Below are positions 1 through 18,046 of a stretch of 32,000 nt of DNA, piece after piece. The DNA comes from Promethearchaeota archaeon. GTDB taxonomy: Archaea > Asgardarchaeota > Lokiarchaeia > Sigyniarchaeales > Promethearchaeaceae. Below the pieces are notes generated by a model, which was not told the origin of the DNA, made no database searches, and was given only the letters and a program-made list of their open reading frames with translations. Position 1 is the first letter of the stretch. Each line of letters begins with the position of its first letter. A program made the translations under genes and the position numbers. The stretch spans positions 150,001-182,000 of the forward strand of contig JAFGBS010000028.1 of assembly GCA_016933055.1 (NCBI GenBank), given 5' to 3'.

Positions 1-2
1 TT

Positions 3-194
3 TGCCCTCAACCCTTATTAGAAACCAGAACAGCTTTGAACCAATTGGAAATAAATCAAATTTTGGAAGTTTATGCAGATGATCCCGCAGCAGAATCGGA
101 TATCAAGAGTCTCGTAAAGCGAACTGATAATGAACTAGTGAAATTTGAAGACAATAATGGTGAATTTAGATTCCTCATTAGAAAATTAAAATAA
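3..194 (+). CDS. tusA: TusA/SirA-family sulfur carrier protein (5'-truncated by window edge)
   Basis: Not in ORF track. Frame 3 reads CPQPLLETRTALNQLEINQILEVYADDPAAESDIKSLVKRTDNELVKFEDNNGEFRFLIRKLK*, with the CPxP motif, the 'LEVxxDDPAAxxDI' segment and a C-terminal 'FxIRK' strand typical of TusA. Stop TAA at 192-194. Confidence 0.9.
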   Translation, partial: CPQPLLETRTALNQLEINQILEVYADDPAAESDIKSLVKRTDNELVKFEDNNGEFRFLIRKLK

Positions 195-205
195 ATGTGA
201 AATAT

Positions 206-568
206 ATGCCAGAAGATAAATTTCTATTATATGTTCAAACCTCCGACGACCCCGAGAGACAATACTCTCCCTTAGTACTGGCACAAACTGCCAAAGCTAT
301 GGATATCGAAGCGAAAGTATACTATCTTGGTCAAGGATTACGGATACTAAAAGGAGACACCGCAAAAAAAATCCAGATGGGAAATTTCCCTAGTATATAT
401 GACATGCAACAAAAATGCATGGAAATGGGAATTGAAATCTATGTTTGTGAAGCAAGCAAACAAATGCTTGGTTGGGATAAAATAGAATTAGCCCCCGGTT
501 TAAAAATTGTTGGTGCTGGAACCTTAAATGATTTAGTACTAGATGCAGCAGGTACCATGTGGTTTTAG
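206..568 (+). CDS. DsrE/DsrF-like sulfur relay protein
   Basis: About 120 aa with DsrE-type pattern: 'SPLVLAQTAKAMDIEAKVYYLGQG', conserved Cys in 'IYVCEAS', 'GAGTLNDLV'. ATG 206 preferred over GTG 197. Confidence 0.85.
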   Translation: MPEDKFLLYVQTSDDPERQYSPLVLAQTAKAMDIEAKVYYLGQGLRILKGDTAKKIQMGNFPSIYDMQQKCMEMGIEIYVCEASKQMLGWDKIELAPGLKIVGAGTLNDLVLDAAGTMWF

Positions 569-615
569 ATGAATGAAAATGAATTTTACTAATAGGAAAT
601 AGGGTGCTAATAACA

Positions 616-1806
616 ATGACGACACAACAACCGTTTGCGTGCGAGGATGTGTATCTAGACTATCAAAGTGCAAAGCCTGTCGATCCTCGGGTAATTTCCA
701 AAATGTTACCATATTTCAACGAACTGTTCGGAAATCCCTCCTCGTTGCATGGTGTCGGGGATGTAGCAACTAATATATTAGACGAAAACCGAGAATTGAT
801 TGCAAATTTTATCAACGCGAAACCAGAAGAAATTATATTCACATCCGGAGCAACTGAAGCAAATAATCTCGCTTTAATTGGTTATGCAATGAGAAACCAA
901 AAGAAAGGAAAACATATTATCATTTCTGAAGTGGAACATATCTCCATCCACAATATCGCAAAATATCTCACACGGCAGGGATTTGAAATCTCTAAATTGC
1001 CAGTAGATATTTACGGGCAAGTTATTATTCATAAACTAAAATCCCGCATTCGAAAGGATACAATTTTAATCTCTGTTGGATATGCTTCTAATGAAATCGG
1101 GACATTACAACCCATTCGAGAGATTGCAAAAATTGCCCGTGAGCGAGATATTGCATTCCATGTTGATGCGGTTGCCGCTGAAGGGCTAATTCCCATTGAT
1201 GTACAAAAGGATGATATTGATCTTCTTACTTTATCCTCAAATGATATTTACGGTCCTAGAGGAGTCGGTGCTTTGTATCTCCGAAAAGGATACCGGGTAA
1301 ATCCGATATTAATCGGTGGTGGGCAAGAACATGGACTACGTTCTGGTTCTGAGAATATTCCCGGAATTGTAGGTTTTGCTGAAGCTGCTCGTATTATGAT
1401 GGAAGAGATGAAGGAGGAGACCAATAGATTGGAATCCTATCGAAATAAACTTCTTGAAACTATCCCCAATCTAATTCCAAAGGCATATATTAACGGTCAT
1501 CCCACTGAGAGATTACCTAACAATGCTCATTTTCGCTTTGAAGCGATTGAAGGGGAAAGCATTTTACTATCACTTAAAGACGAAGGTATCGCTATCGCTA
1601 CTGGTTCTGCTTGTTCATCTAAAACCTTAGAACCTTCCCATACTCTTATTGCTACTGGTTTATTGCATGAAGAAGCTCATGGGAGTTTGCAAATTACGCT
1701 TGGTAGGTTTACTAAGGAGGAAGATGTTGATAAATTGATTAAGATACTACCTGGGGTCGTCTCACGTTTACGTAAATTATCACCTTTATGGAAAGAGGAA
1801 CAATAA
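616..1806 (+). CDS. iscS: IscS/NifS-family (class V PLP fold) cysteine desulfurase homolog with Lys-to-Asp substitution at the PLP site
   Basis: Motifs YLDY, FGNPSS, FTSGATEANN, EVEH, HVDA, YGPRGVGALY, RSGSEN and catalytic loop ATGSACSS. The canonical SxHK reads SSND. ATG 616 has AGGGTG at 601-606 upstream (track start GTG 604). Confidence 0.93.
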   Translation: MTTQQPFACEDVYLDYQSAKPVDPRVISKMLPYFNELFGNPSSLHGVGDVATNILDENRELIANFINAKPEEIIFTSGATEANNLALIGYAMRNQKKGKHIIISEVEHISIHNIAKYLTRQGFEISKLPVDIYGQVIIHKLKSRIRKDTILISVGYASNEIGTLQPIREIAKIARERDIAFHVDAVAAEGLIPIDVQKDDIDLLTLSSNDIYGPRGVGALYLRKGYRVNPILIGGGQEHGLRSGSENIPGIVGFAEAARIMMEEMKEETNRLESYRNKLLETIPNLIPKAYINGHPTERLPNNAHFRFEAIEGESILLSLKDEGIAIATGSACSSKTLEPSHTLIATGLLHEEAHGSLQITLGRFTKEEDVDKLIKILPGVVSRLRKLSPLWKEEQ

Positions 1807-1810
1807 AAAA

Positions 1811-2641
1811 ATGAAGTCAACAAACTATTCTGAAAAAGTTATGGACCACTTTCGGCATCCCCGAAACCAAGGGCACCTCATTGGTTTTGATGTGAGTTGG
1901 GGGAGGGTCGGAAATCCCGTCTGTGGGGATCTAATGGATATTTATATTCGGGTTCATGATGATATAATTATAGATATCAAGTTTGAAACCTTTGGTTGTG
2001 GTTCAGCTGTTGCTACCAGTTCTATGATTACCGAAATGGTGAAAGGTAAAACGCTGGATGAAGCATACAAGGTCTCAAGAGGCGATATAGCAGAAGAACT
2101 TGATGGTTTACCACCAATAAAGATGCATTGTTCCAATCTCGCTGCAGATGCATTAAAAAAGGCTATAGACAACTGGAGAGAAGGATTTCGAGTGGGAGAG
2201 AGGTTACCGGACGAACCCGAATTGGTATCTGCATGTGCATCAAGTGAAGTAGCAAAAAAAATTGCGAAATTGGGAAAAACTATCGAAGGCCTTGACGATT
2301 ATAAGGGTAATGGTGTATTTAATTATGTGAACAAATATGAGGATTTTTCTGGATTACGCACTCTTATCTTGTTTAACGGAGATAAATCAGTAGAAATCGC
2401 CATGAAACTAACAGAATACACAAACCGAGTTATTCTGGTGACAGATGAGCCTTCAGTGAAGACTGATGATCCTGAATTAAAAACCCGGTTAAAAACTTCT
2501 GCAGTAAAAATTCTCACACAATCTGAAATACTTCGTATAAGTGGAGAGGGAGAAGTGGAAAAAGTAGAATTATTAGAACTGGATGAAAAGGATAAATTTG
2601 AGCTATTCGTGGATGCAGTCATTGTATTAGAGTCAAATTAA
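1811..2641 (+). CDS. iscU: IscU/NifU-N Fe-S scaffold fused to a C-terminal thioredoxin-reductase-like NAD(P)H-binding domain
   Basis: N-terminal ~125 aa: YSEKVMDHFRHPRN, GNPVCGD, FETFGCGSA, PPIKMHCS (three Cys plus Asp and His). The C-terminal ~125 aa follows the TrxB NADPH-domain pattern by eye. Confidence 0.9.
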   Translation: MKSTNYSEKVMDHFRHPRNQGHLIGFDVSWGRVGNPVCGDLMDIYIRVHDDIIIDIKFETFGCGSAVATSSMITEMVKGKTLDEAYKVSRGDIAEELDGLPPIKMHCSNLAADALKKAIDNWREGFRVGERLPDEPELVSACASSEVAKKIAKLGKTIEGLDDYKGNGVFNYVNKYEDFSGLRTLILFNGDKSVEIAMKLTEYTNRVILVTDEPSVKTDDPELKTRLKTSAVKILTQSEILRISGEGEVEKVELLELDEKDKFELFVDAVIVLESN

Positions 2642-2667: not shown

Positions 2668-3531
2668 CTATAACTCTTCTACGTACCCTTCATTGGGTAA
2701 AATATCACATGGCTCGGAAAGGTCTATTCCATGTCCTTTTGTGAACATTTGCCGAAATGTAGCAATGAATCGAGCTGCGTCCGCCCCATCAATCACGTTA
2801 TGGTCTATGCTAAAACAGGCATGGAGAAATTCTCGATTCTTTAGCTCACCATTAATGAATCGCGGTTGCCAATCCGTTCCTCCAACTTGAAAACTGACAA
2901 CGTGTGGAGTCACTGCAATAGGATTACCTCCTTCTTGCAAAAACATTCCAATTGATGTTAATCCAATTGTTCCATTAAACTGTTTTTTCTGATGAGGGTT
3001 TCTCATTGCTTTTTTTAATAAGATTCTTCGTAGCCATCCTGGCATCTTGGTGAACATCTTTACCCTTCGGGCTTGTTTCTTTTTTTTATCATCATATTGG
3101 AGCCCTTTTGCTTTCCGAGTCTGTGCATTCCGAATTTCTTTGTGAATCTCTTTCCAATGTTTTTTTTGAGCTGCTCGAATAGTATAAGCGGTTGGTATCG
3201 GTCGTTCATACCCTTCGAACTGTCTTTCAACGATTGCGACAATATCAACATCTTCAAATATAATGATTTTCTTACGTCCTTTCATGTATGCATTTATATG
3301 GGGGTGTTCTTTGATTGCTTGCCCCAGTAAATATGCTATATACCCCGTAAAACTGTAGGGTTTACCATATTCATCTAAATGGGAGCGAAAATAGTTCCGA
3401 ACTTCTGTTACATCAATTACTCCTATTGCCGAGATATTATTCTTATTTCTACCCAAGCTAATAAAATCTATCTCAGCTTGTTTAGTTTTCGTGATGTTGC
3501 GAACTTCATACTTATAGTTGTATTTTCTCAT
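2668..3531 (-). CDS. 2-oxoacid dehydrogenase E2-type acyltransferase, catalytic domain only (paralog 1)
   Basis: GTIGLTSIGMF (cf. GTFTISNLG) and SIDHNVIDGADAARF (cf. DHRxxDG). No lipoyl or subunit-binding domain. ATG 3531 (MRKYNY) preferred over the track start at 3585. Confidence 0.85.
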   Translation of the reverse strand: MRKYNYKYEVRNITKTKQAEIDFISLGRNKNNISAIGVIDVTEVRNYFRSHLDEYGKPYSFTGYIAYLLGQAIKEHPHINAYMKGRKKIIIFEDVDIVAIVERQFEGYERPIPTAYTIRAAQKKHWKEIHKEIRNAQTRKAKGLQYDDKKKKQARRVKMFTKMPGWLRRILLKKAMRNPHQKKQFNGTIGLTSIGMFLQEGGNPIAVTPHVVSFQVGGTDWQPRFINGELKNREFLHACFSIDHNVIDGADAARFIATFRQMFTKGHGIDLSEPCDILPNEGYVEEL

Positions 3532-3632
3532 TACGTTCACCAGAAAAAGCAATAAATTTTGATCTGATAACGTTGGGGTATCCAATAAAAACCAATTGGT
3601 TATTATTCACATAATGTTTTGAAGGAGTGGTA

Positions 3633-3664: not shown

Positions 3665-4492
3665 ATGGCAAAATCAAAACCTTCAGCAACTTTCAAGTCG
3701 ATAACTAAAGCACGAGGAGTGATTATTGATTTATTAGAACATGGGTGGGCTGCTCACCGAATTCATGCTTATGGAGAAGAAGATGTTGATGATGCAATTC
3801 ATCGCCTAAAGGTTATCTCTGAGAAATTGGGTAGAAAAATTTCGGTTACAGCATTTTTTGTTACTTGTTGGGCGAGTACAGTAGCGAATCACAAGATTCT
3901 CCAAGCTTATCGCATCAATAAAAGGAATATGATCATATTTGATGAAGTTGATTGCGTGGTCAATATAGAGAAGGATATTGAAGGTAGAAAAGTACCTACG
4001 AGTTATATTGTGCGAAATGCAGACAAAAAGAATGTTATAGAAATTTCAGACGAAATTCGAGAGGCACAACAATCTAAATCGGATTCTGCTGTTAGCACAT
4101 CCAGTAAGAATAAACAATCTAAAGCTCGATTTCTGCTTAAATTTCCACGATTTATGCGGAAATTCTTTGTAAAACGAATGGTAAAAAATCCGTACATGAA
4201 AAAGGAATTATATGGTACTATCGGATTATCATCTATTGGTATGTTTACAATGGGAACAGGAAGCGCAATCTCATTAACAGTTCATGCTTCTAGCATAATA
4301 ATTGGGGGTATAGGAAAAAGACCTTGGGTGGTAAATGATAAAGTAGTACCAAGGTATGCTTATACAGGTACTATTACAATGGACCACGATTTAGTAGATG
4401 GGGGACCAGCTGCACGTGCAATAGCTGAATTTCGTACTAAAACACGGACAGCTTATGGATTGGATGAGATAGAGAAAAAATTGGGATTGTAA
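3665..4492 (+). CDS. E2-type acyltransferase, catalytic domain only (paralog 2)
   Basis: GTIGLSSIGMF and TMDHDLVDGGPAARAI; 275 aa, no lipoyl domain. Confidence 0.85.
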   Translation: MAKSKPSATFKSITKARGVIIDLLEHGWAAHRIHAYGEEDVDDAIHRLKVISEKLGRKISVTAFFVTCWASTVANHKILQAYRINKRNMIIFDEVDCVVNIEKDIEGRKVPTSYIVRNADKKNVIEISDEIREAQQSKSDSAVSTSSKNKQSKARFLLKFPRFMRKFFVKRMVKNPYMKKELYGTIGLSSIGMFTMGTGSAISLTVHASSIIIGGIGKRPWVVNDKVVPRYAYTGTITMDHDLVDGGPAARAIAEFRTKTRTAYGLDEIEKKLGL

Positions 4493-4585: not shown

Positions 4586-4608
4586 CCGACTAGCTTTTTT
4601 GTTTGTAT

Positions 4609-5442
4609 ATGAAGAAGTCCGATGTTCCCGTCAAAATTCTAAAAATGAAACCAGCAAGGAAAGTGATAATAGATCTTCTACATTTAGGATTAAAAGTATC
4701 CCGAATTCATGCCTATGGAGAAGATGATTGTACCGAAGCTTTACAACGCTTAAATGTTATTAGTGAGAAATTGGGACGAAAAATCTCATTTACCGCTTAT
4801 CTTGCAACTTGTTGGGCTTCTACAATTTATAATCACAAAATTATGCACGCATATCGAAGAAGAAATAAAATTGTTTTATTTGAGGACGTAGATGTTGCAT
4901 GCGTTGTAGAACGAGATATTGTAGACAAGAAAGTCCCTACGAGTTATATCATTCGAGAAGCTCAAAACAAAAACGTAGTTCATATTTCGGATGAAATTCA
5001 AGAAGCAAAGCAATCTAAATCAGAAACCGCTGCCACATCAACAAAAAAACTGAAACAAAGCAAAGCTAGTTTGATTACACGATTACCCGGATTCATTCGA
5101 AGATTTATTCTCAAACACATGACCAAGAATCCATGGCTAAAAAAAGAGATATTCGGTACTGTAGGTCTTTCCTCAATAGGAATGTTTACGATGGGAAGCG
5201 GAAGCGCTATTCCCGTAACAGTGCATAGTTCAACATTTATCGTCGGAGGGATCGCGAAAAAACCTTGGGTAGTAGGGAATGAAATAAAAATACGAGATAT
5301 TATAACTGGCACTATTTCGATGGATCATGATCTAGTTGATGGCGGTCCTGCTGCACGAGCGATTGCCGAACTCAGAAATAAAATCCGGGAGTGTCACGGG
5401 TTAAATGCAATTGAAAAGGAATTAGGAATTCAATACGATTAA
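4609..5442 (+). CDS. E2-type acyltransferase, catalytic domain only (paralog 3)
   Basis: GTVGLSSIGMF and SMDHDLVDGGPAARAI; closely similar to paralog 2 along its length. ATG 4609 preferred over TTG 4603. Confidence 0.85.
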   Translation: MKKSDVPVKILKMKPARKVIIDLLHLGLKVSRIHAYGEDDCTEALQRLNVISEKLGRKISFTAYLATCWASTIYNHKIMHAYRRRNKIVLFEDVDVACVVERDIVDKKVPTSYIIREAQNKNVVHISDEIQEAKQSKSETAATSTKKLKQSKASLITRLPGFIRRFILKHMTKNPWLKKEIFGTVGLSSIGMFTMGSGSAIPVTVHSSTFIVGGIAKKPWVVGNEIKIRDIITGTISMDHDLVDGGPAARAIAELRNKIRECHGLNAIEKELGIQYD

Positions 5443-12366: not shown

Positions 12367-15300
12367 ATGTATCATTTTCAGGAATATCAAGATATCGAAA
12401 TAACGGTTTACAATCCCTTTATCTGCACTTTAGTGGGGATAGTGAACTTGAATTTAGACAATAACATCGCTATATGCTCGTTAGAAGATGATTCTGGCAA
12501 CCGAATTGTCGGATTTTTCTATCAAAAATTCGCAGATCTGCTTTCTGATCATCACTTACAAACCCGGATACCTTTCAAAATAAGTATAGTCGCAGGTGAT
12601 ATTAAAAATCAAGGAGAAAAACAGTTCTTCGAAGTATATCAATGTATATTTGAGAAGGATTTTTTAATAAATAGCAGTTTATTGGCATCACACAGTTATT
12701 GTGAAATGTCCACTTATCTTAATAGTCATATCCATGTACATTCTCCCTTTAATCCATCCCAGATTTTCGGTATCGTTTACCATGATTATTTAATGTATTT
12801 ATTTGAAGATCAAGAATTATTGAAATTACCCATAGAAGATCCGAAAATCTCTCTAAAGGTTAGAATCGCATTTCAACAAGCAATATTTCGCAACTGGAAA
12901 CCTCTTGCAACTTTTAATATTGATGAAAACCTCTATTTAGATTACTTTTTGACATATTTTGGTGAACGAGAAATAGAATTCATCAATTTTGAACTGAAAA
13001 AATTAAAACCATATGGTGATGACTGCTCCTTTCAAGCTGAGGTTATGGTTCGTTCGCGAAATCTGGGATTACAAGGGAGGGTTGATCGCATTTTATGGAA
13101 CAAGAATAAAAACTCGTTTATCTTATACGAAACAAAAACAGGTCGAACTTCTTTTTCATCGGAGAACACTGCAAAATTTCAATTAATGGCTTATTCTTTA
13201 ATTTTAAATGAGTACTATTCAAAACAACTAGAAGGCTTATTTCTTGAATACCCCAGAAATGATCTTCAAGATCGGTTAAAATTGATAGAATATGATGAGA
13301 AACAAATTGTTCGTTTAATAAATATGCGTAATCAAATTTGGGCAATTAGTATTGGTAAACGACCTGAAGAGGGACCGTTCAAGAGCTGTTCTTCTGAATG
13401 TTTTCAAAAAGATGTTTGTGCTTTTTATTGCTTGCGTTCTTTCTTAACAAAACATTGTATTGAATGTGACCGCTGCAATTATAATCCCATTCTGCTTCGA
13501 AAGGAGGATTTTGAAGAATTTCGTAGAATTAATGTGTACTATGATTGGTTTTACCAATTTTTAGAAATGGAATATCTGAATAATCAAGATTTATTATTAG
13601 AATTAGGGTTACCATCAAAAGATCGAGAATCTTTGGGAAATTGTTTTTCAAGAGTGGTAATAGCTGATTTACTACGGGAAATGAGTGAAAATGATGGAGA
13701 GACTAATTCAAATAAATTTTGGATCAAATTTGGTCGTGAAAACAATTATGACTCAGATTTTACGAATACCCGTATGGATTCTTCAGATTATATATTAATC
13801 ACACCGCAAAATTATCGTCCCCTCACCTTACAATCAATTCCTGGAATTATACATAATATTCAGAAGCACCATGTGATAGTAGAGGTTACTTTAGATTATT
13901 TCTCCCAAGTCTCAAATTACTCCAAAGATACAATATTTCGAATTGACATGATAACCTCAAATCGAATTATTAACAATGAAAAATCCGCTTTAGACGCTTT
14001 TCTTCGAATCCCATATCATAAAGGTTATGAAAATCTCAAACAAATTCGAAAATATTTAATCAATTTCAATATCAAACTTGCGGAAACATCAATACCTCTT
14101 AAGAAAGAAATTCAAGATAAATTAAAAAAAAAGCATTATAACACAGATCAAATCAGCGCAATACAAAAATCCCTATCCTTCGAGGATCTTCTCTTAATTC
14201 AAGGACCTCCTGGAACAGGAAAAACTACAGTAATAACAGAAATAGTACACCAATTAAACAGAAAGATGGAGCATATACCAAATTTTATAAAATCCCATAA
14301 ACCAAAAAAAGAGGAACAAAACAAAGAATTCAAGCGAAATAAAAATGAGAAGGATAAAAATCAAATTTACAATGAATCAACTAATCAAGTTCCGGATTTC
14401 GAGGTCGAAAATTACTACATACGAAAAAAGATTCTCATAACTGCTTATACTAACCGAGCTGTAGATACAATGGTGGAAATGCTCTTAAAAAAGTATCCAT
14501 CAATTGATATACTCCGCATTGGAGCAGAATTATCGGTGTCCAATTCGGTTAAACAATATTCTATAGATTTTAAATGTAAGAAGCAAGTAAAATTCGATGA
14601 CGGTCATTTATATACCGTGAATTCTTCGAAAAATGCTCATGATTTGATTAACAATGCTAGCATAATTGCAACTACATGCTTAGGTGCTAACTCAGTATTA
14701 TTACAAGATATAGAATTTGAATATGTGATAATTGACGAAGCAGGACAATTAATTGAACCTGCTGCACTTATACCAATATTAAAATCCAAACGCGTCATAT
14801 TAGTTGGAGATGATGCTCAACTACCTCCTATCTCGGTGAAAGAACAAAATCCATTGCTTAGCTCAGAATATTTTACTGAAAAAAAATATTTACATGGATT
14901 TGAAGGAACAATTCTTGACTATCAGCAAGGAAATAAAGATACTACTCAAATCATTGATAGTCGAAAACAAATATTCCTAAAAGAATTAGAGCAGTTAGGT
15001 ATCAATCCTACAGATACGTTAAGTATTTCACTATTCCAGCGATTGAAACGAATTTTTCAAAGAAGTGATTTTTATATTTTACTCACACATCAGTATCGGA
15101 TGCATAAATCTATCTGTAAATTCGTTTCCGATCAATTTTACGAATCAAAACTTGTACCAGGGGAAATTAATGGTACAAATATAGGCGATCAGTCGGTGTC
15201 TATTTTTTACAAAGCACATAACATAAAATTAAACGGGCATATTAAAGAAAATAATTTGTCAGTGATACCATTTTTAAAAATTTGGCAACCCCATTTACCT

Positions 15301-16032
15301 ATGATTTTTCTGGATACTAAATCTGTAAATGCATTTGATTCCAAACTAGATGAGAGATATGACGAGATGAGTTCCAGATTTAATGAAAAAGAAGCAGATT
15401 TCTTAGTTAAAACTGTCGCGTATTTATTACATTTACATCCAATCTGTCAACGTAATTCTTCCACATCCAGCAAAGAGTATGAATTAAAACAAGAAGATTT
15501 TAAGAGATTTCTTTCAAACATCGGCATAATAACTCCTTATCGAGCACAAGTTCGGAAAATTGGAGATTTATTATCTGACGCTTTTAGGGAGGACAAAACT
15601 ATTCAAAAACTCATCTCCAAGTTCCTTATCGTAGATACTGTGGATAAATTCCAAGGAAAAGAATGTGAAATAGTACTAATCAGTCTTGTTGATTCCAATC
15701 CTGATAAAAAATTAAGTGCACTGTATTCAGAACTTCGAAGAATGAACGTATCAATAACCCGTGCAAAAACTAAACTCATCGTGATAGGTAATTCGGATAT
15801 GTTTCAACGAACGACACCGAAAAAAACTCATTCAATTTTAGATTTCTTTATTTCTCCAACGTCCGTGTCTTATCATTCCAAAAATAAAGATAATCGTCCT
15901 CCAGAGAATAATTTAAAAAGCATTAAAAAAATTCACCAATTTTTTACTAATTTAGTGCAATATGTTCAAACACATAATGGCTACGTGTTATTGGACGAAA
16001 ACATGATAACTAGCATGGAACTGAAAGATTGA
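12367..16032 (+). CDS. dna2: Dna2-like nuclease/helicase (PD-(D/E)XK Fe-S nuclease + SF1B helicase)
   Basis: Nuclease GLQGRVD...YETKTG and QLMAY; Cys at SYCEM and CSSECFQKDVC. Helicase motifs QGPPGTGKT, AYTNRAVD, DEAGQ, VGDDAQLPP, QYRMH, ITPYRAQ, TVDKFQGKE and NVSITRAK. Confidence 0.85.
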   Translation: MYHFQEYQDIEITVYNPFICTLVGIVNLNLDNNIAICSLEDDSGNRIVGFFYQKFADLLSDHHLQTRIPFKISIVAGDIKNQGEKQFFEVYQCIFEKDFLINSSLLASHSYCEMSTYLNSHIHVHSPFNPSQIFGIVYHDYLMYLFEDQELLKLPIEDPKISLKVRIAFQQAIFRNWKPLATFNIDENLYLDYFLTYFGEREIEFINFELKKLKPYGDDCSFQAEVMVRSRNLGLQGRVDRILWNKNKNSFILYETKTGRTSFSSENTAKFQLMAYSLILNEYYSKQLEGLFLEYPRNDLQDRLKLIEYDEKQIVRLINMRNQIWAISIGKRPEEGPFKSCSSECFQKDVCAFYCLRSFLTKHCIECDRCNYNPILLRKEDFEEFRRINVYYDWFYQFLEMEYLNNQDLLLELGLPSKDRESLGNCFSRVVIADLLREMSENDGETNSNKFWIKFGRENNYDSDFTNTRMDSSDYILITPQNYRPLTLQSIPGIIHNIQKHHVIVEVTLDYFSQVSNYSKDTIFRIDMITSNRIINNEKSALDAFLRIPYHKGYENLKQIRKYLINFNIKLAETSIPLKKEIQDKLKKKHYNTDQISAIQKSLSFEDLLLIQGPPGTGKTTVITEIVHQLNRKMEHIPNFIKSHKPKKEEQNKEFKRNKNEKDKNQIYNESTNQVPDFEVENYYIRKKILITAYTNRAVDTMVEMLLKKYPSIDILRIGAELSVSNSVKQYSIDFKCKKQVKFDDGHLYTVNSSKNAHDLINNASIIATTCLGANSVLLQDIEFEYVIIDEAGQLIEPAALIPILKSKRVILVGDDAQLPPISVKEQNPLLSSEYFTEKKYLHGFEGTILDYQQGNKDTTQIIDSRKQIFLKELEQLGINPTDTLSISLFQRLKRIFQRSDFYILLTHQYRMHKSICKFVSDQFYESKLVPGEINGTNIGDQSVSIFYKAHNIKLNGHIKENNLSVIPFLKIWQPHLPMIFLDTKSVNAFDSKLDERYDEMSSRFNEKEADFLVKTVAYLLHLHPICQRNSSTSSKEYELKQEDFKRFLSNIGIITPYRAQVRKIGDLLSDAFREDKTIQKLISKFLIVDTVDKFQGKECEIVLISLVDSNPDKKLSALYSELRRMNVSITRAKTKLIVIGNSDMFQRTTPKKTHSILDFFISPTSVSYHSKNKDNRPPENNLKSIKKIHQFFTNLVQYVQTHNGYVLLDENMITSMELKD

Positions 16033-16112: not shown

Positions 16113-16760
16113 ATGGTAATCGAAGGAACCCGAGAGCCTTTGCCATCTTCAATCCAAAATCTGTTATTAGATTCAGAGAATAGAATCCTCCAAACGGGAT
16201 TTCATAAAGGTTCAATAATCACAAAACTTAAAGATGGTCAGAATTCTATTGTATTCTCTGATACCATAGATATATCGGAAGATCTGTCAAAAATCGATGG
16301 TTTAAAAGTAGGTGTTAATGGGGACCTTGCAATTGCAGAAAAAGGAGTTTTTGAAATTTCCAAATCCAAAATTTTGTATTCCGTGAAAATGGATAAGGAA
16401 ATTGTTAAGACTTTTGATAAAGCTCGGTTTAATACCAGTTTTCCATATATTACAGCGTTTTTGCATACCAGCTGTTTGTATAACTACTCTCAGAAACATC
16501 CAATAAACCATCTAGATTTTGTTAGAGGAGAAATTTTAAGTCATCCGGTAGCTTTATTATATCACAATAGTATTTTAGTTGGAGATAGAGCCGTAATCGA
16601 TGATCAAGGATATCCCGTTTTTTATAATGCGTTTCTTATTCAACGATCCGAGTCTTCTCAACCTGAGGAATTGATTTCATTTACATATGAACCGATTTTT
16701 CGAATGAATATTCATTTTATCAAATGGATTATCATTTTGGGAGTCGAAATGCTGAAGTGA
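16113..16760 (+). CDS. hypothetical protein (215 aa)
   Basis: Open frame with ATG; its TGA stop overlaps an in-frame GTG of the next gene (GTGA at 16757-16760). No recognised motif. Confidence 0.7.
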   Translation: MVIEGTREPLPSSIQNLLLDSENRILQTGFHKGSIITKLKDGQNSIVFSDTIDISEDLSKIDGLKVGVNGDLAIAEKGVFEISKSKILYSVKMDKEIVKTFDKARFNTSFPYITAFLHTSCLYNYSQKHPINHLDFVRGEILSHPVALLYHNSILVGDRAVIDDQGYPVFYNAFLIQRSESSQPEELISFTYEPIFRMNIHFIKWIIILGVEMLK

Positions 16761-18046
16761 CCTTCGATTCTGCATATAAGGATAAGTTTGTTAAAAAGCT
16801 CTCTTTTTTATTGCCACCTTTTGATCGTTTTGTTGCAAAAGTAGAACTTCCAGAGCAGGAACCCGTGTTTCCCTCCCGTGAGAATGAAATAAGAAAGATT
16901 GCGGATATGATAAAGGGCAACCGATCCATGATTATTCCTGTAATTAGCGAAGTAGGTGCAGGAAAAACTCATTTTTTATGGGGAATTTACAACAGTTTTG
17001 ATGTAGAGGCTATCACTACGTTTCTTTCTTTTCCGCGCTCGAAAGAAAAATTTTTGTATTATCTTTATTCAAATTTTATCAAGCAATTCGGTCAAAATAA
17101 CCTAAGAGATTTTTCTCAGAATTTTGGAGAAAAATTTGGAGCAGCGGAGAGATTATATGGACTATTTCGCACTCAAAATACAGAACGAATCGTAATATCT
17201 GCAATTGATCAATTAAAAGATGAATACGATCCAGAGTGCTTAGAACAATGTGTTAATGTGACTATTCAGCATCTTATGGACAACGATAAGTCTCAAATTG
17301 CAGAACGCTGGTTGTTAGGACAAGTCATGGATGTCGAAGACTTGTTTCTCATCAATGCCACCGATGACCTTTCCAATGAGTGTATGGCAAAAACCATGTT
17401 GAAATTGATTATTGAAAATCATAATGAGGAAATTGTCCTTTTATTCGATGATCTCGATAAAGTAGCCAAGGAATTTGACAGTTCTACGGTATTTAATGAA
17501 ACTGGTGTAGATGTGAATTGGGCTGGAGATCTAGAGGAAGTATGCGAAAAAAACAGTCCAGATTCAGGAGAGTTTGCCCTTCTTGAGGAATTAATCGCAT
17601 TGATGAAAGACATCAATAATTTAAAAATTGTGGTAACACTGGAACAAGAAGAATCGGGACGATTTATAGAATGGCTAAAGGATAAACAAGATAAATGCTC
17701 AATATATATCGCAGATCCCATTCAATTGGGTCCTATTTCACTCAAAGATGCATATCATCTCTATTTTTCCCGCTTAAAAAATTTCTGCCTTAAATATAAC
17801 ATCAATCACCCCACCGCCGATCGTTTTTTTAAACCTGAGAAAGATTTGGAAGAATATTTAGATATATATAGGGAAGATCTCTATTTTCCACTGAATCAAG
17901 AAATATTAGAGGTAATTTATGGGATCACTTTTGGAAATCCTCGTCAAATTTTGAAGAATTTTAAGCGAATTTTTGATGCAATTATTTTCGAGGAAATTCG
18001 AGTTGAGGATATTAAAACGGAATACAAACGTTTTTTGCGCAAATAG
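16724..18046 (+). CDS. P-loop AAA+-type ATPase (BrxD/DUF2791-like)
   Basis: Walker A variant SEVGAGKTH, Walker B IVLLFDDLD, AERWLLG and C-terminal GNPRQIL. Alternative start GTG 16757. The family label is tentative. Confidence 0.7.
   Translation: MDYHFGSRNAEVTFDSAYKDKFVKKLSFLLPPFDRFVAKVELPEQEPVFPSRENEIRKIADMIKGNRSMIIPVISEVGAGKTHFLWGIYNSFDVEAITTFLSFPRSKEKFLYYLYSNFIKQFGQNNLRDFSQNFGEKFGAAERLYGLFRTQNTERIVISAIDQLKDEYDPECLEQCVNVTIQHLMDNDKSQIAERWLLGQVMDVEDLFLINATDDLSNECMAKTMLKLIIENHNEEIVLLFDDLDKVAKEFDSSTVFNETGVDVNWAGDLEEVCEKNSPDSGEFALLEELIALMKDINNLKIVVTLEQEESGRFIEWLKDKQDKCSIYIADPIQLGPISLKDAYHLYFSRLKNFCLKYNINHPTADRFFKPEKDLEEYLDIYREDLYFPLNQEILEVIYGITFGNPRQILKNFKRIFDAIIFEEIRVEDIKTEYKRFLRK

Follow-up and report, generated by a model that had tools for sequence, protein, structure and literature searches.

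A conserved tusA-dsrE-iscS-iscU cassette with a lysine-less IscS, and a possible carrier-fed route of sulfur into iron-sulfur cluster assembly

A stretch of 32,000 nucleotides from the genome of a Promethearchaeota archaeon (GenBank assembly GCA_016933055.1, contig JAFGBS010000028.1; G000:C2:150001-182000 in our numbering of genomes and contigs), referred to here as the window, opens with four tightly spaced open reading frames (ORFs) on the plus strand: tusA, dsrE, iscS and iscU. The encoded IscS, a homolog of cysteine desulfurases, lacks the lysine that binds pyridoxal 5'-phosphate (PLP). In archaea and bacteria alike, genes for TusA and DsrE, two sulfur carrier families, were found beside IscS genes of this lysine-less kind and beside none of the sampled lysine-bearing relatives. 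The four genes are best explained as one conserved, horizontally mobile Fe-S assembly module of the minimal IscS-IscU (MIS/ISC) type. We propose, with confidence that stays short of even, that in Asgard archaea, Archaeoglobi, methanogens and anaerobic bacteria a widespread relay by TusA, optionally joined by DsrE, supplies a pair of pseudo-desulfurase IscS and IscU without desulfuration of cysteine.

Results

A four-gene cassette opens the window

The host genome bin comprises 3.76 Mb in 36 contigs and is 91% complete. DNA of the window is present in a sediment metagenome and partly also in a hot-spring metagenome, but in no RNA run among those searched, and relatives of its proteins occur in metagenome-assembled genomes (MAGs) of Promethearchaeota, Thorarchaeota and Helarchaeota and in Promethearchaeum syntrophicum. 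The Pfam and NCBIfam models assigned the four ORFs to TusA, DsrE, Aminotran_5 (NifS/IscS type) and NifU_N; with hidden Markov model (HMM) E-values of 1e-14 to 1e-76, these matches are not due to chance. The features of the cassette, in window coordinates, are listed here; pLDDT is the predicted local distance difference test of AlphaFold2 (AF2) models, and TrxR stands for thioredoxin reductase.

1..194, plus strand: 3' part of tusA (ORF read from 3), gene cut by the window start; PF01206, 72 bits
197..568, plus strand: dsrE from a GTG start (ATG at 206), 123 amino acids, single-domain; PF02635, 51 bits, and PF13686
604..1806, plus strand: iscS/misS, putative pseudo-desulfurase, from a GTG start (ATG at 616), 400 amino acids from GTG; PF00266, 256 bits, residues 16-378
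1811..2641, plus strand: iscU, whole gene; NifU_N covers residues 6-123
1811..2194, plus strand: iscU scaffold domain (residues 1-128); PF01592, 156 bits
2195..2275, plus strand: iscU linker (residues 129-155), predicted to be disordered; pLDDT <50 over residues 137-155
2276..2641, plus strand: iscU C-terminal domain (residues 156-276); AF2 pLDDT 94.7, predicted TrxR NADPH-domain fold

The window start truncates tusA. The full gene encodes 82 amino acids and starts 55 nucleotides 5' of the window at G000:C2:149946 (L002:9946-10194), and a gap of 156 nucleotides separates it from an upstream, unrelated membrane-protein gene, which places tusA at the head of the unit. The gene 3' of iscU lies on the opposite strand. 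The window thus holds the same co-oriented adjacency of tusA, dsrE, lysine-less iscS and iscU that has been drawn for the isc1 locus of Methanosarcina acetivorans.

An original prediction, made from the sequence of the window alone, had described four co-oriented genes with gaps of 11, 47 and 4 nucleotides; all four plus-strand ORFs were found with HMM support, and the same spacings were measured to the ATG starts. It had also named a CPxP cysteine in TusA, a VCEAS cysteine in DsrE, an IscS that keeps its cysteine and has lost the Schiff-base lysine, and an extra domain in IscU, all of which proved correct: CPQP was read in TusA and Cys84 within VCEAS in DsrE, the SSND of IscS was aligned residue by residue to 4EB5/4HVK with Cys337 present, and the roughly 150 residues of IscU beyond NifU_N include a degenerate TrxR NADPH domain. 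Motif residues and coordinates of all four proteins were verified directly on the sequence.

The IscS homolog resembles Archaeoglobus fulgidus IscS2

The IscS protein scored 473.7 bits against the NifS model TIGR03402 and 409 bits against the IscS model TIGR02006, in both cases under the model's cut-off. Its motif SSNDIYGP carries Asn213-Asp214 (nucleotides 1240-1245; Asp214 at 1243-1245) in place of the canonical His-Lys (SGHK), so that the PLP Schiff-base lysine of S-x-H-K is absent and the protein, a homolog of the type I desulfurases, would not be a functional member of the class. The window IscS also has alanine at the position of Escherichia coli Gln183, and the PLP site is therefore altered at three positions (His to Asn, Lys to Asp and Gln to Ala). 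The mobile-loop Cys337 is retained in ATGSACSS (nucleotides 1612-1614). Among solved structures the closest is that of A. fulgidus IscS2 (4EB5/4HVK), with a full-length score of 477 bits and the same SSNDIYGP; the engineered D199K variant 4R5F differs from it at exactly the aspartate. On the phylogenetic tree described below, the window gene lies inside the Lys-to-Asp clade (61 rows, support 99).

The A. fulgidus protein (AfIscS) has been described as devoid of cysteine desulfurase activity, as binding pyridoxamine 5'-phosphate (PMP) or PLP non-covalently, and as providing its loop cysteine, in the 4EB5 complex, as the fourth ligand of the nascent [2Fe-2S] cluster on IscU (the review PMC8918507; PMC7585200). 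According to the review, PMP and not PLP is still the cofactor bound by the D199K variant, and the sulfur source of the AfIscS-IscU pair is an open question, with free sulfide as a hypothesis (PMC8918507). Judged by its residues, the window IscS, a relative of AfIscS at the level of orthologs, would likewise be a pseudo-desulfurase, predicted to be unable to form persulfide from cysteine.

Carrier genes adjoin lysine-less IscS genes

We surveyed iscS neighbourhoods in four samplings, with the lysine state taken from alignment columns. The first used one genome per species, and its best 80 loci were read. All six Lys-to-Asp IscS loci among them had an adjoining tusA; their hosts were Thorarchaeota, Promethearchaeota, Bathyarchaeia, two MAGs labelled Actinobacteria and one labelled Spirochaetota. 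Two other lysine-less forms (Asn-Thr and Asn-Val) were accompanied by dsrE and tusA in different orders, and a His-Met form, seen at one locus, by neither. Beside the 72 lysine-bearing genes of this sampling neither tusA nor dsrE was found, though iscU lay beside most of them. The second sampling covered 300 genomes of the window's phylum, 251 of which had an IscS match. The best 29 loci were read and all were SSND; tusA was present in all but two, both at contig edges, dsrE in about 20 of the 29, and the IscU fusion in nearly all. In the third, drawn from 150 Halobacteriota genomes, 23 of the best 30 loci were SSND and 19 of these had tusA (none of the seven lysine-bearing loci did).

The fourth sampling consisted of other lysine-less forms, which were picked out of 1.8 billion protein representatives and then located on their contigs. 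The Ser-Ala and Asn-Ser forms showed the order tusA-dsrE-iscS-iscU, the Gln-Gly form iscS-dsrE-tusA and the Arg-Ser form thiS-moaE-iscS-tusA-apbC-thiI, while the Gln-Ser form had a divergent dsrE. There was no tusA or dsrE near the Gln-Gln, Asn-Gln and His-Thr forms, and no carrier gene with the Ser-Asp form, which has a lysine-bearing class-V gene after iscU. Counts for loci with complete flanks were as follows.

Lys-to-Asp IscS, 53 loci: tusA at 50, dsrE at 38, iscU at 50
Lys-bearing IscS, 72 loci: tusA at 0, dsrE at 0, iscU at 63

As a sensitivity control at the level of whole genomes, the Pfam TusA model found no TusA in 29 of the 50 genomes with the nearest lysine-bearing IscS, and in the complete genomes among them TusA is far from iscS. 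The same cassette as in the window occurs in P. syntrophicum, other Asgard archaea, Bathyarchaeia, Halobacteriota and bacterial MAGs (labelled Actinobacteria and Spirochaetota). One Halobacteriota locus (L128, genome G387) is near-identical to L126, L127 and L129, yet no TusA ORF is present in the 1.5 kb of DNA upstream; a frameshift or an assembly error may account for this.

A FastTree phylogeny was constructed for the sampled IscS rows. The main lysine-less clade holds 64 rows, namely all Lys-to-Asp genes and the Ser-Ala, Asn-Ser and Ser-Asp variants, and 60 of them are linked to the carriers. A second, separately branching lysine-less clade (7 rows, support 99) has five members linked to TusA/DsrE, in gene orders that include iscS-iscU-dsrE-tusA, dsrE-tusA-iscS and iscS-dsrE-tusA. 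The His-Thr and His-Met forms are singletons, both unlinked. Whether tusA and dsrE follow the lysine state was the test that the original prediction had set for itself, and the sampled rows leave it unrefuted (60/64 and 5/7 of the lysine-less rows against 0/79 of the lysine-bearing ones), in a case that is qualitative: both old lysine-less clades carry TusA/DsrE. The link has also held where the genes moved between archaea and bacteria, where dsrE was lost and where IscU gained its extra domain, and it is seen in several gene orders.

The putative carriers TusA and DsrE

The sulfur-carrying cysteine of TusA, in CPQP, is encoded at positions 3-5 of the window. The best match in the Protein Data Bank (PDB) is E. 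coli TusA (3LVJ_C), with the cysteine aligned. The CPxP cysteine, D45 and D51 are kept in all 60 cassette TusAs, that of the window included, and the position of R27, a residue on which the binding of IscS depends in E. coli (PMC2854127), is occupied by arginine or lysine in 59 of the 60. The stacking pair of the E. coli complex has changed on both sides: IscS-W45 is replaced by aspartate in 40 of 61 cassette IscS proteins, and TusA-F58 by arginine or lysine in 56 of 60; A. fulgidus-like IscS proteins have phenylalanine or leucine at the W45 site. Such an exchange is compatible with a contact re-made at the same site, which is only suggestive. A predicted complex of two IscS chains with TusA scored 0.08, a value that speaks neither for nor against binding.

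The candidate active residue of DsrE is Cys84, encoded at nucleotides 446-448. It aligns with the conserved cysteine of the best PDB match, 3MC3 (SSO1125, DsrE3A-type), and the motif xxxCEAS is present in 40 of 49 cassette DsrE matches. The cassette DsrE therefore looks like a DsrE3-like sulfur carrier, its subgroup being suggested by resemblance to 3MC3. Proteins of the DsrE3 type and TusA are known to accept sulfur from inorganic donors, in sulfane or thiosulfonate form, and to pass it between them (PMC11094781).

Two further genes of the host genome encode TusA or rhodanese domains. A second, orphan TusA is encoded at G000:C16 (L195:3407-3637). It lies about 1.7 kb 3' of the genes for a molybdopterin oxidoreductase and the 4Fe-4S subunit of that enzyme, from which a gene for an M32 carboxypeptidase separates it. 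At G000:C17 (L196:1215-2588) lies the gene for a 457-residue metallo-beta-lactamase protein with two rhodanese domains.

IscU carries a domain related to thioredoxin reductase

The cluster ligands of IscU (C38, D40, C63, H106 and C107) and the LPPxK motif, here LPPIK, are present and invariant in 42 fusion homologs; the AF2 model of the scaffold domain has a pLDDT of about 90. The linker is variable in the alignment, and its Cys142 is partly conserved, being cysteine in many homologs. For the C-terminal domain, a Foldseek search of the PDB returned low-Mr TrxR and TrxR-like ferredoxin-NADP reductases (FNR) as top matches, with template modelling (TM) scores of 0.85-0.91 and E-values down to 3e-12, and hhalign aligned it with the genome's own TrxR (residues 124-234) at 95.6% probability. 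Pyr_redox gave a weak match in the C-terminal 120 residues of the window IscU and in 19 of the 42 homologs. In the TrxR alignment, CATC faces non-cysteine residues and GGSDTA faces FNGDKS of the IscU domain, in which the first glycine of GxGxxA has been lost to phenylalanine.

An active NAD(P)H reductase was considered for this domain and rejected: there is no FAD domain, no CxxC and no HRR phosphate-binding residues, and the glycine motif is degenerate. A protein segment of only about 120 residues, with neither FAD domain nor CxxC, is not a TrxR and would be no reductase by itself. It is most likely a docking or regulatory module or a relic, which we regard as the weakest part of our account; it might recruit electrons or partners for the reduction of sulfane sulfur. 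The fusion is common, with thousands of homologs; among the 120 listed, nearly all were of similar length and covered the query. It marks a subclade that holds the Asgard and the bacterial cassettes.

The source of the sulfur

An IscS that cannot desulfurate cysteine, its PLP lysine being aspartate, must receive sulfur from outside. We suggest that sulfane sulfur would reach the cassette scaffold bound to TusA, the near-universal partner; that the optional DsrE3-like carrier would load or assist TusA from a non-cysteine pool of polysulfide, persulfide or sulfide-derived sulfur; that TusA could hand this sulfur to Cys337 of IscS, straight to IscU, or to both; and that the sulfur would be reduced on IscS-IscU and incorporated into clusters. 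What the data show directly is gene content, motif states, clade membership, the specificity of the linkage and the fold of the IscU extension. As a reading of the cassette, a relay fed from a source other than cysteine has, in our estimate, a little less than an even chance of being correct.

Three complete, Archaeoglobi-like genomes with tusA-iscS-iscU (G352, G370 and G378) contained no second strong Aminotran_5 match and no other IscS/SufS-type enzyme; the other class-V enzymes of G352 are SepCysS and a BhcA-like aminotransferase. The cassette therefore cannot need a canonical desulfurase everywhere. Together with a linkage confined, in the samples taken, to lysine-less genes, these genomes support an external, carrier-borne supply of sulfur. 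The original prediction had gone further, to a flow that may be reversed, with inorganic sulfur captured by the carriers and cluster assembly that would be independent of cysteine. It is supported in part. Its carrier-borne supply gains support from the linkage and the three genomes; its cysteine independence is not established for the present organism, since a canonical NifS-like gene is encoded on contig 11 (G000:C11:41016-42233; L010:6013-7233, minus strand). The product, of 406 amino acids, has SAHK and the loop cysteine, and scored 401 bits against TIGR03402, under that model's cut-off. The gene is divergently paired with one for a thioredoxin reductase (L010:7439-8365, plus strand).

The nearest rival accepts the relay and keeps cysteine as the ultimate source. 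An active desulfurase, here the NifS-like enzyme of contig 11, would persulfurate TusA, which, alone or together with DsrE, would then supply IscS-IscU, so that the cassette would represent a division of labour and not a cysteine-independent route. Transfer from IscS to TusA is established in E. coli (PMC2854127), most sampled genomes of the window's order have two IscS-like matches, SufS-type genes are also present in G075 and G354, and at the Ser-Asp locus L201 a lysine-bearing class-V gene directly follows iscU. This explanation does not fit the three complete genomes that lack any other IscS/SufS-type enzyme; moreover, in the loci read an active paralog never adjoins the cassette, and carriers of the DsrE type are known to load from inorganic sulfur compounds (PMC11094781). 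We consider it unlikely, though well worth keeping in view.

Free sulfide could instead feed IscS-IscU, with TusA and DsrE sharing only regulation with them and doing another job, such as buffering or detoxification of sulfane sulfur, tRNA thiolation or molybdenum cofactor (Moco) synthesis. Sulfide is the published hypothesis for AfIscS-IscU (PMC8918507), IscU can be chemically reconstituted with sulfide (PMC7585200), one lysine-less IscS-TusA pair lies among ThiS, MoaE, ApbC and ThiI genes, and stress genes surround the cassette in some hosts. Such a scheme leaves unexplained why the carriers occur with lysine-less IscS only and never with the 79 lysine-bearing relatives, why the link has outlasted rearrangements and transfers between domains, and why only a few bases separate tusA from iscS; it appears quite improbable to us. 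Far less probable again is an IscS that remains a desulfurase through non-covalent PLP or another base, with TusA as the acceptor and sulfur flowing outward. The IscS fold and loop cysteine are intact, and AfIscS still binds PLP or PMP non-covalently, as given in PMC8918507; the same source has AfIscS, with the same motif, as inactive and its D199K variant as binding PMP and not PLP, and three residues of the PLP site have changed together (His to Asn, Lys to Asp, Gln to Ala).

Several points weigh against a carrier-fed supply from a non-cysteine pool. We infer every sulfur-transfer step, its direction and its source. In this genome TusA could obtain cysteine-derived sulfur from the canonical NifS-like enzyme. 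Roughly one cassette in four has no dsrE, and some lysine-less members (P0186, P0236, L143 and L146) have no carrier nearby. At L201:3897-6635 the Ser-Asp IscS and IscU occur without TusA or DsrE and with the lysine-bearing class-V gene (SVHK) directly after iscU, an arrangement that may be an alternative sulfur supply to a dead IscS. The Arg-Ser IscS at L207:3200-7717 (thiS-moaE-iscS-tusA-apbC/mrp-thiI) stands in a context of thio-cofactors and tRNA thiolation without IscU; a lysine-less IscS-TusA pair among Moco and tRNA-thiolation genes means that the destination of the sulfur is not necessarily Fe-S clusters only. Finally, the lysine was lost about four times, in two deep clades (both linked) and two singletons (both unlinked), and the association rests on these roughly four evolutionary events and not on some 140 independent loci. 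An independent-pairs test, with 2-4 usable contrasts, gave p values of 0.5-1; with so few losses it falls short of significance, and the figures of 0/79 for lysine-bearing rows and 65/71 for the two lysine-less clades are not statistical proof.

Neighbouring genes in the window and in other hosts

The cassette of Halobacteriota genome G354 (L170:114-7956; identities from translations), tusA-dsrE-iscS(ND)-iscU, lies inside a redox-stress island. Genes for a hybrid-cluster protein (Hcp), a flavodiiron/metallo-beta-lactamase protein, an Nfu-like protein of 74 amino acids, a CPYC redoxin and a complete TrxR are located 5' of tusA, which comes directly after the TrxR gene, and a peroxiredoxin gene follows iscU. 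In a Promethearchaeota MAG (L019:7994-12357), the region 3' of the cassette encodes an HdrD-like CCG/4Fe-4S protein, a flavoprotein and rubrerythrin. The flavoprotein, of 798 amino acids, is of the CoA-disulfide-reductase type, includes one TusA and two rhodanese domains, and might be a source of persulfide or electrons. In hosts other than these Halobacteriota, the cassette neighbours include ferritin, rubrerythrin, flavodoxin and this CoA-disulfide-reductase-rhodanese-TusA flavoprotein. This set of genes fits an Fe-S assembly or repair unit that requires iron, electrons and sulfane sulfur.

Directly after the cassette the window encodes three paralogs of 275-305 amino acids (2668-3585, minus strand; 3665-4492, plus strand; 4603-5442, plus strand) whose only match is PF00198 (2-oxoacid dehydrogenase acyltransferase, catalytic domain); they lack both the lipoyl and the E3-binding domain. 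Further downstream, a protein of 1221 amino acids (12367-16032, plus strand) combines a superfamily-1 helicase (AAA_11/AAA_12) with a nuclease domain of the PD-(D/E)XK type. Two ORFs without a Pfam match come next (region 16113-18046, plus strand), and a type IA topoisomerase is encoded on the opposite strand.

Discussion

Should sulfur reach these proteins by way of TusA, the sulfur supply of the crystallised IscS-IscU pair of A. fulgidus would be explained, and the finding would bear on the general question of the route by which sulfide or sulfane sulfur enters cluster assembly in anaerobes. With carriers tied to lysine-less enzymes across two domains, the open question of the sulfur source becomes an experiment with four proteins and three cysteines. 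Workable carriers of the cluster exist: genetic work is feasible on isc1 of M. acetivorans, and P. syntrophicum is available in culture. The matter is also relevant to an early, possibly cysteine-independent evolution of ISC/MIS and to the way in which archaea related to eukaryotes build their Fe-S clusters.

Of the systems described so far, A. fulgidus IscS2-IscU (4EB5, 4EB7 and 4HVK; D199K, 4R5F) shares with the window the IscS clade, SSNDIYGP, the loop cysteine and the iscU partner. Relatives of the A. fulgidus protein at L133, L135 and L138 have tusA directly upstream; the 4EB5 sequence itself was absent from the 44 Halobacteriota/Archaeoglobi loci by peptide look-up, a sample that holds relatives of A. 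fulgidus and not its own genome. Unlike the sampled Archaeoglobi-like cassettes, which are tusA-iscS-iscU with a plain IscU, the window adds dsrE and the TrxR-NADPH-like domain of IscU. The published work on A. fulgidus IscS-IscU proposes free sulfide and does not discuss TusA or DsrE as donors.

The closest arrangement in the literature is isc1 of M. acetivorans, with MA0810 (SirA-like), MA0809 (DrsE superfamily), MA0808 (IscS1) and MA0807 (IscU1) (Deere et al. 2020, PMC7585200, Fig. S1). IscS1 reportedly has no catalytic lysine, and IscU1 is enlarged, at 24.2 kDa (PMC7585200). The window and isc1 share the same four gene families, a likeness at family level. In PMC7585200 the extra genes are "of unknown function" and only drawn, with no tie to the missing lysine and no experiment on isc1. 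This uninterpreted supplementary drawing was all that our literature search returned for the cassette, and a prior description beyond the coverage of that search is possible.

The window TusA is of the same family as its counterpart in the E. coli IscS-TusA complex (3LVJ). It retains the CPxP cysteine, and the interface residue R27 is conserved; the docking site in E. coli is helix alpha-2 of IscS. In the E. coli Tus relay, an active IscS passes sulfur to TusA for tRNA thiolation and Moco, whereas the window IscS would be unable to generate sulfur, so that any transfer would have to run towards IscS/IscU. As in the DsrE3A/TusA relays by which sulfur oxidisers move thiosulfonate and persulfide sulfur (Metallosphaera cuprina, sHdr systems, 3MC3), a single-domain DsrE3-like protein with an aligned cysteine stands beside TusA. 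Those relays feed dissimilatory sulfur oxidation (sHdr, rDsr), whereas here the target would be an Fe-S scaffold; neither the window nor the flank upstream of it showed any sHdr or rDsr gene.

With regard to the sulfide-using SMS system (SmsCB), the host genome has a single SufB-like gene. With MIS (MisS-MisU) the cassette shares a two-gene IscS-IscU core and the lack of chaperones, ferredoxin and an A-type carrier; unlike MIS, which is a cysteine desulfurase with a scaffold, it combines a dead desulfurase with two dedicated sulfur carriers. Lysine-less IscS (A. fulgidus, M. acetivorans IscS1), TusA/DsrE relays and the minimal IscS-IscU pair (MIS) are each already known; the cassette is a minimal ISC-type machine with a dead desulfurase and its own sulfur carriers.

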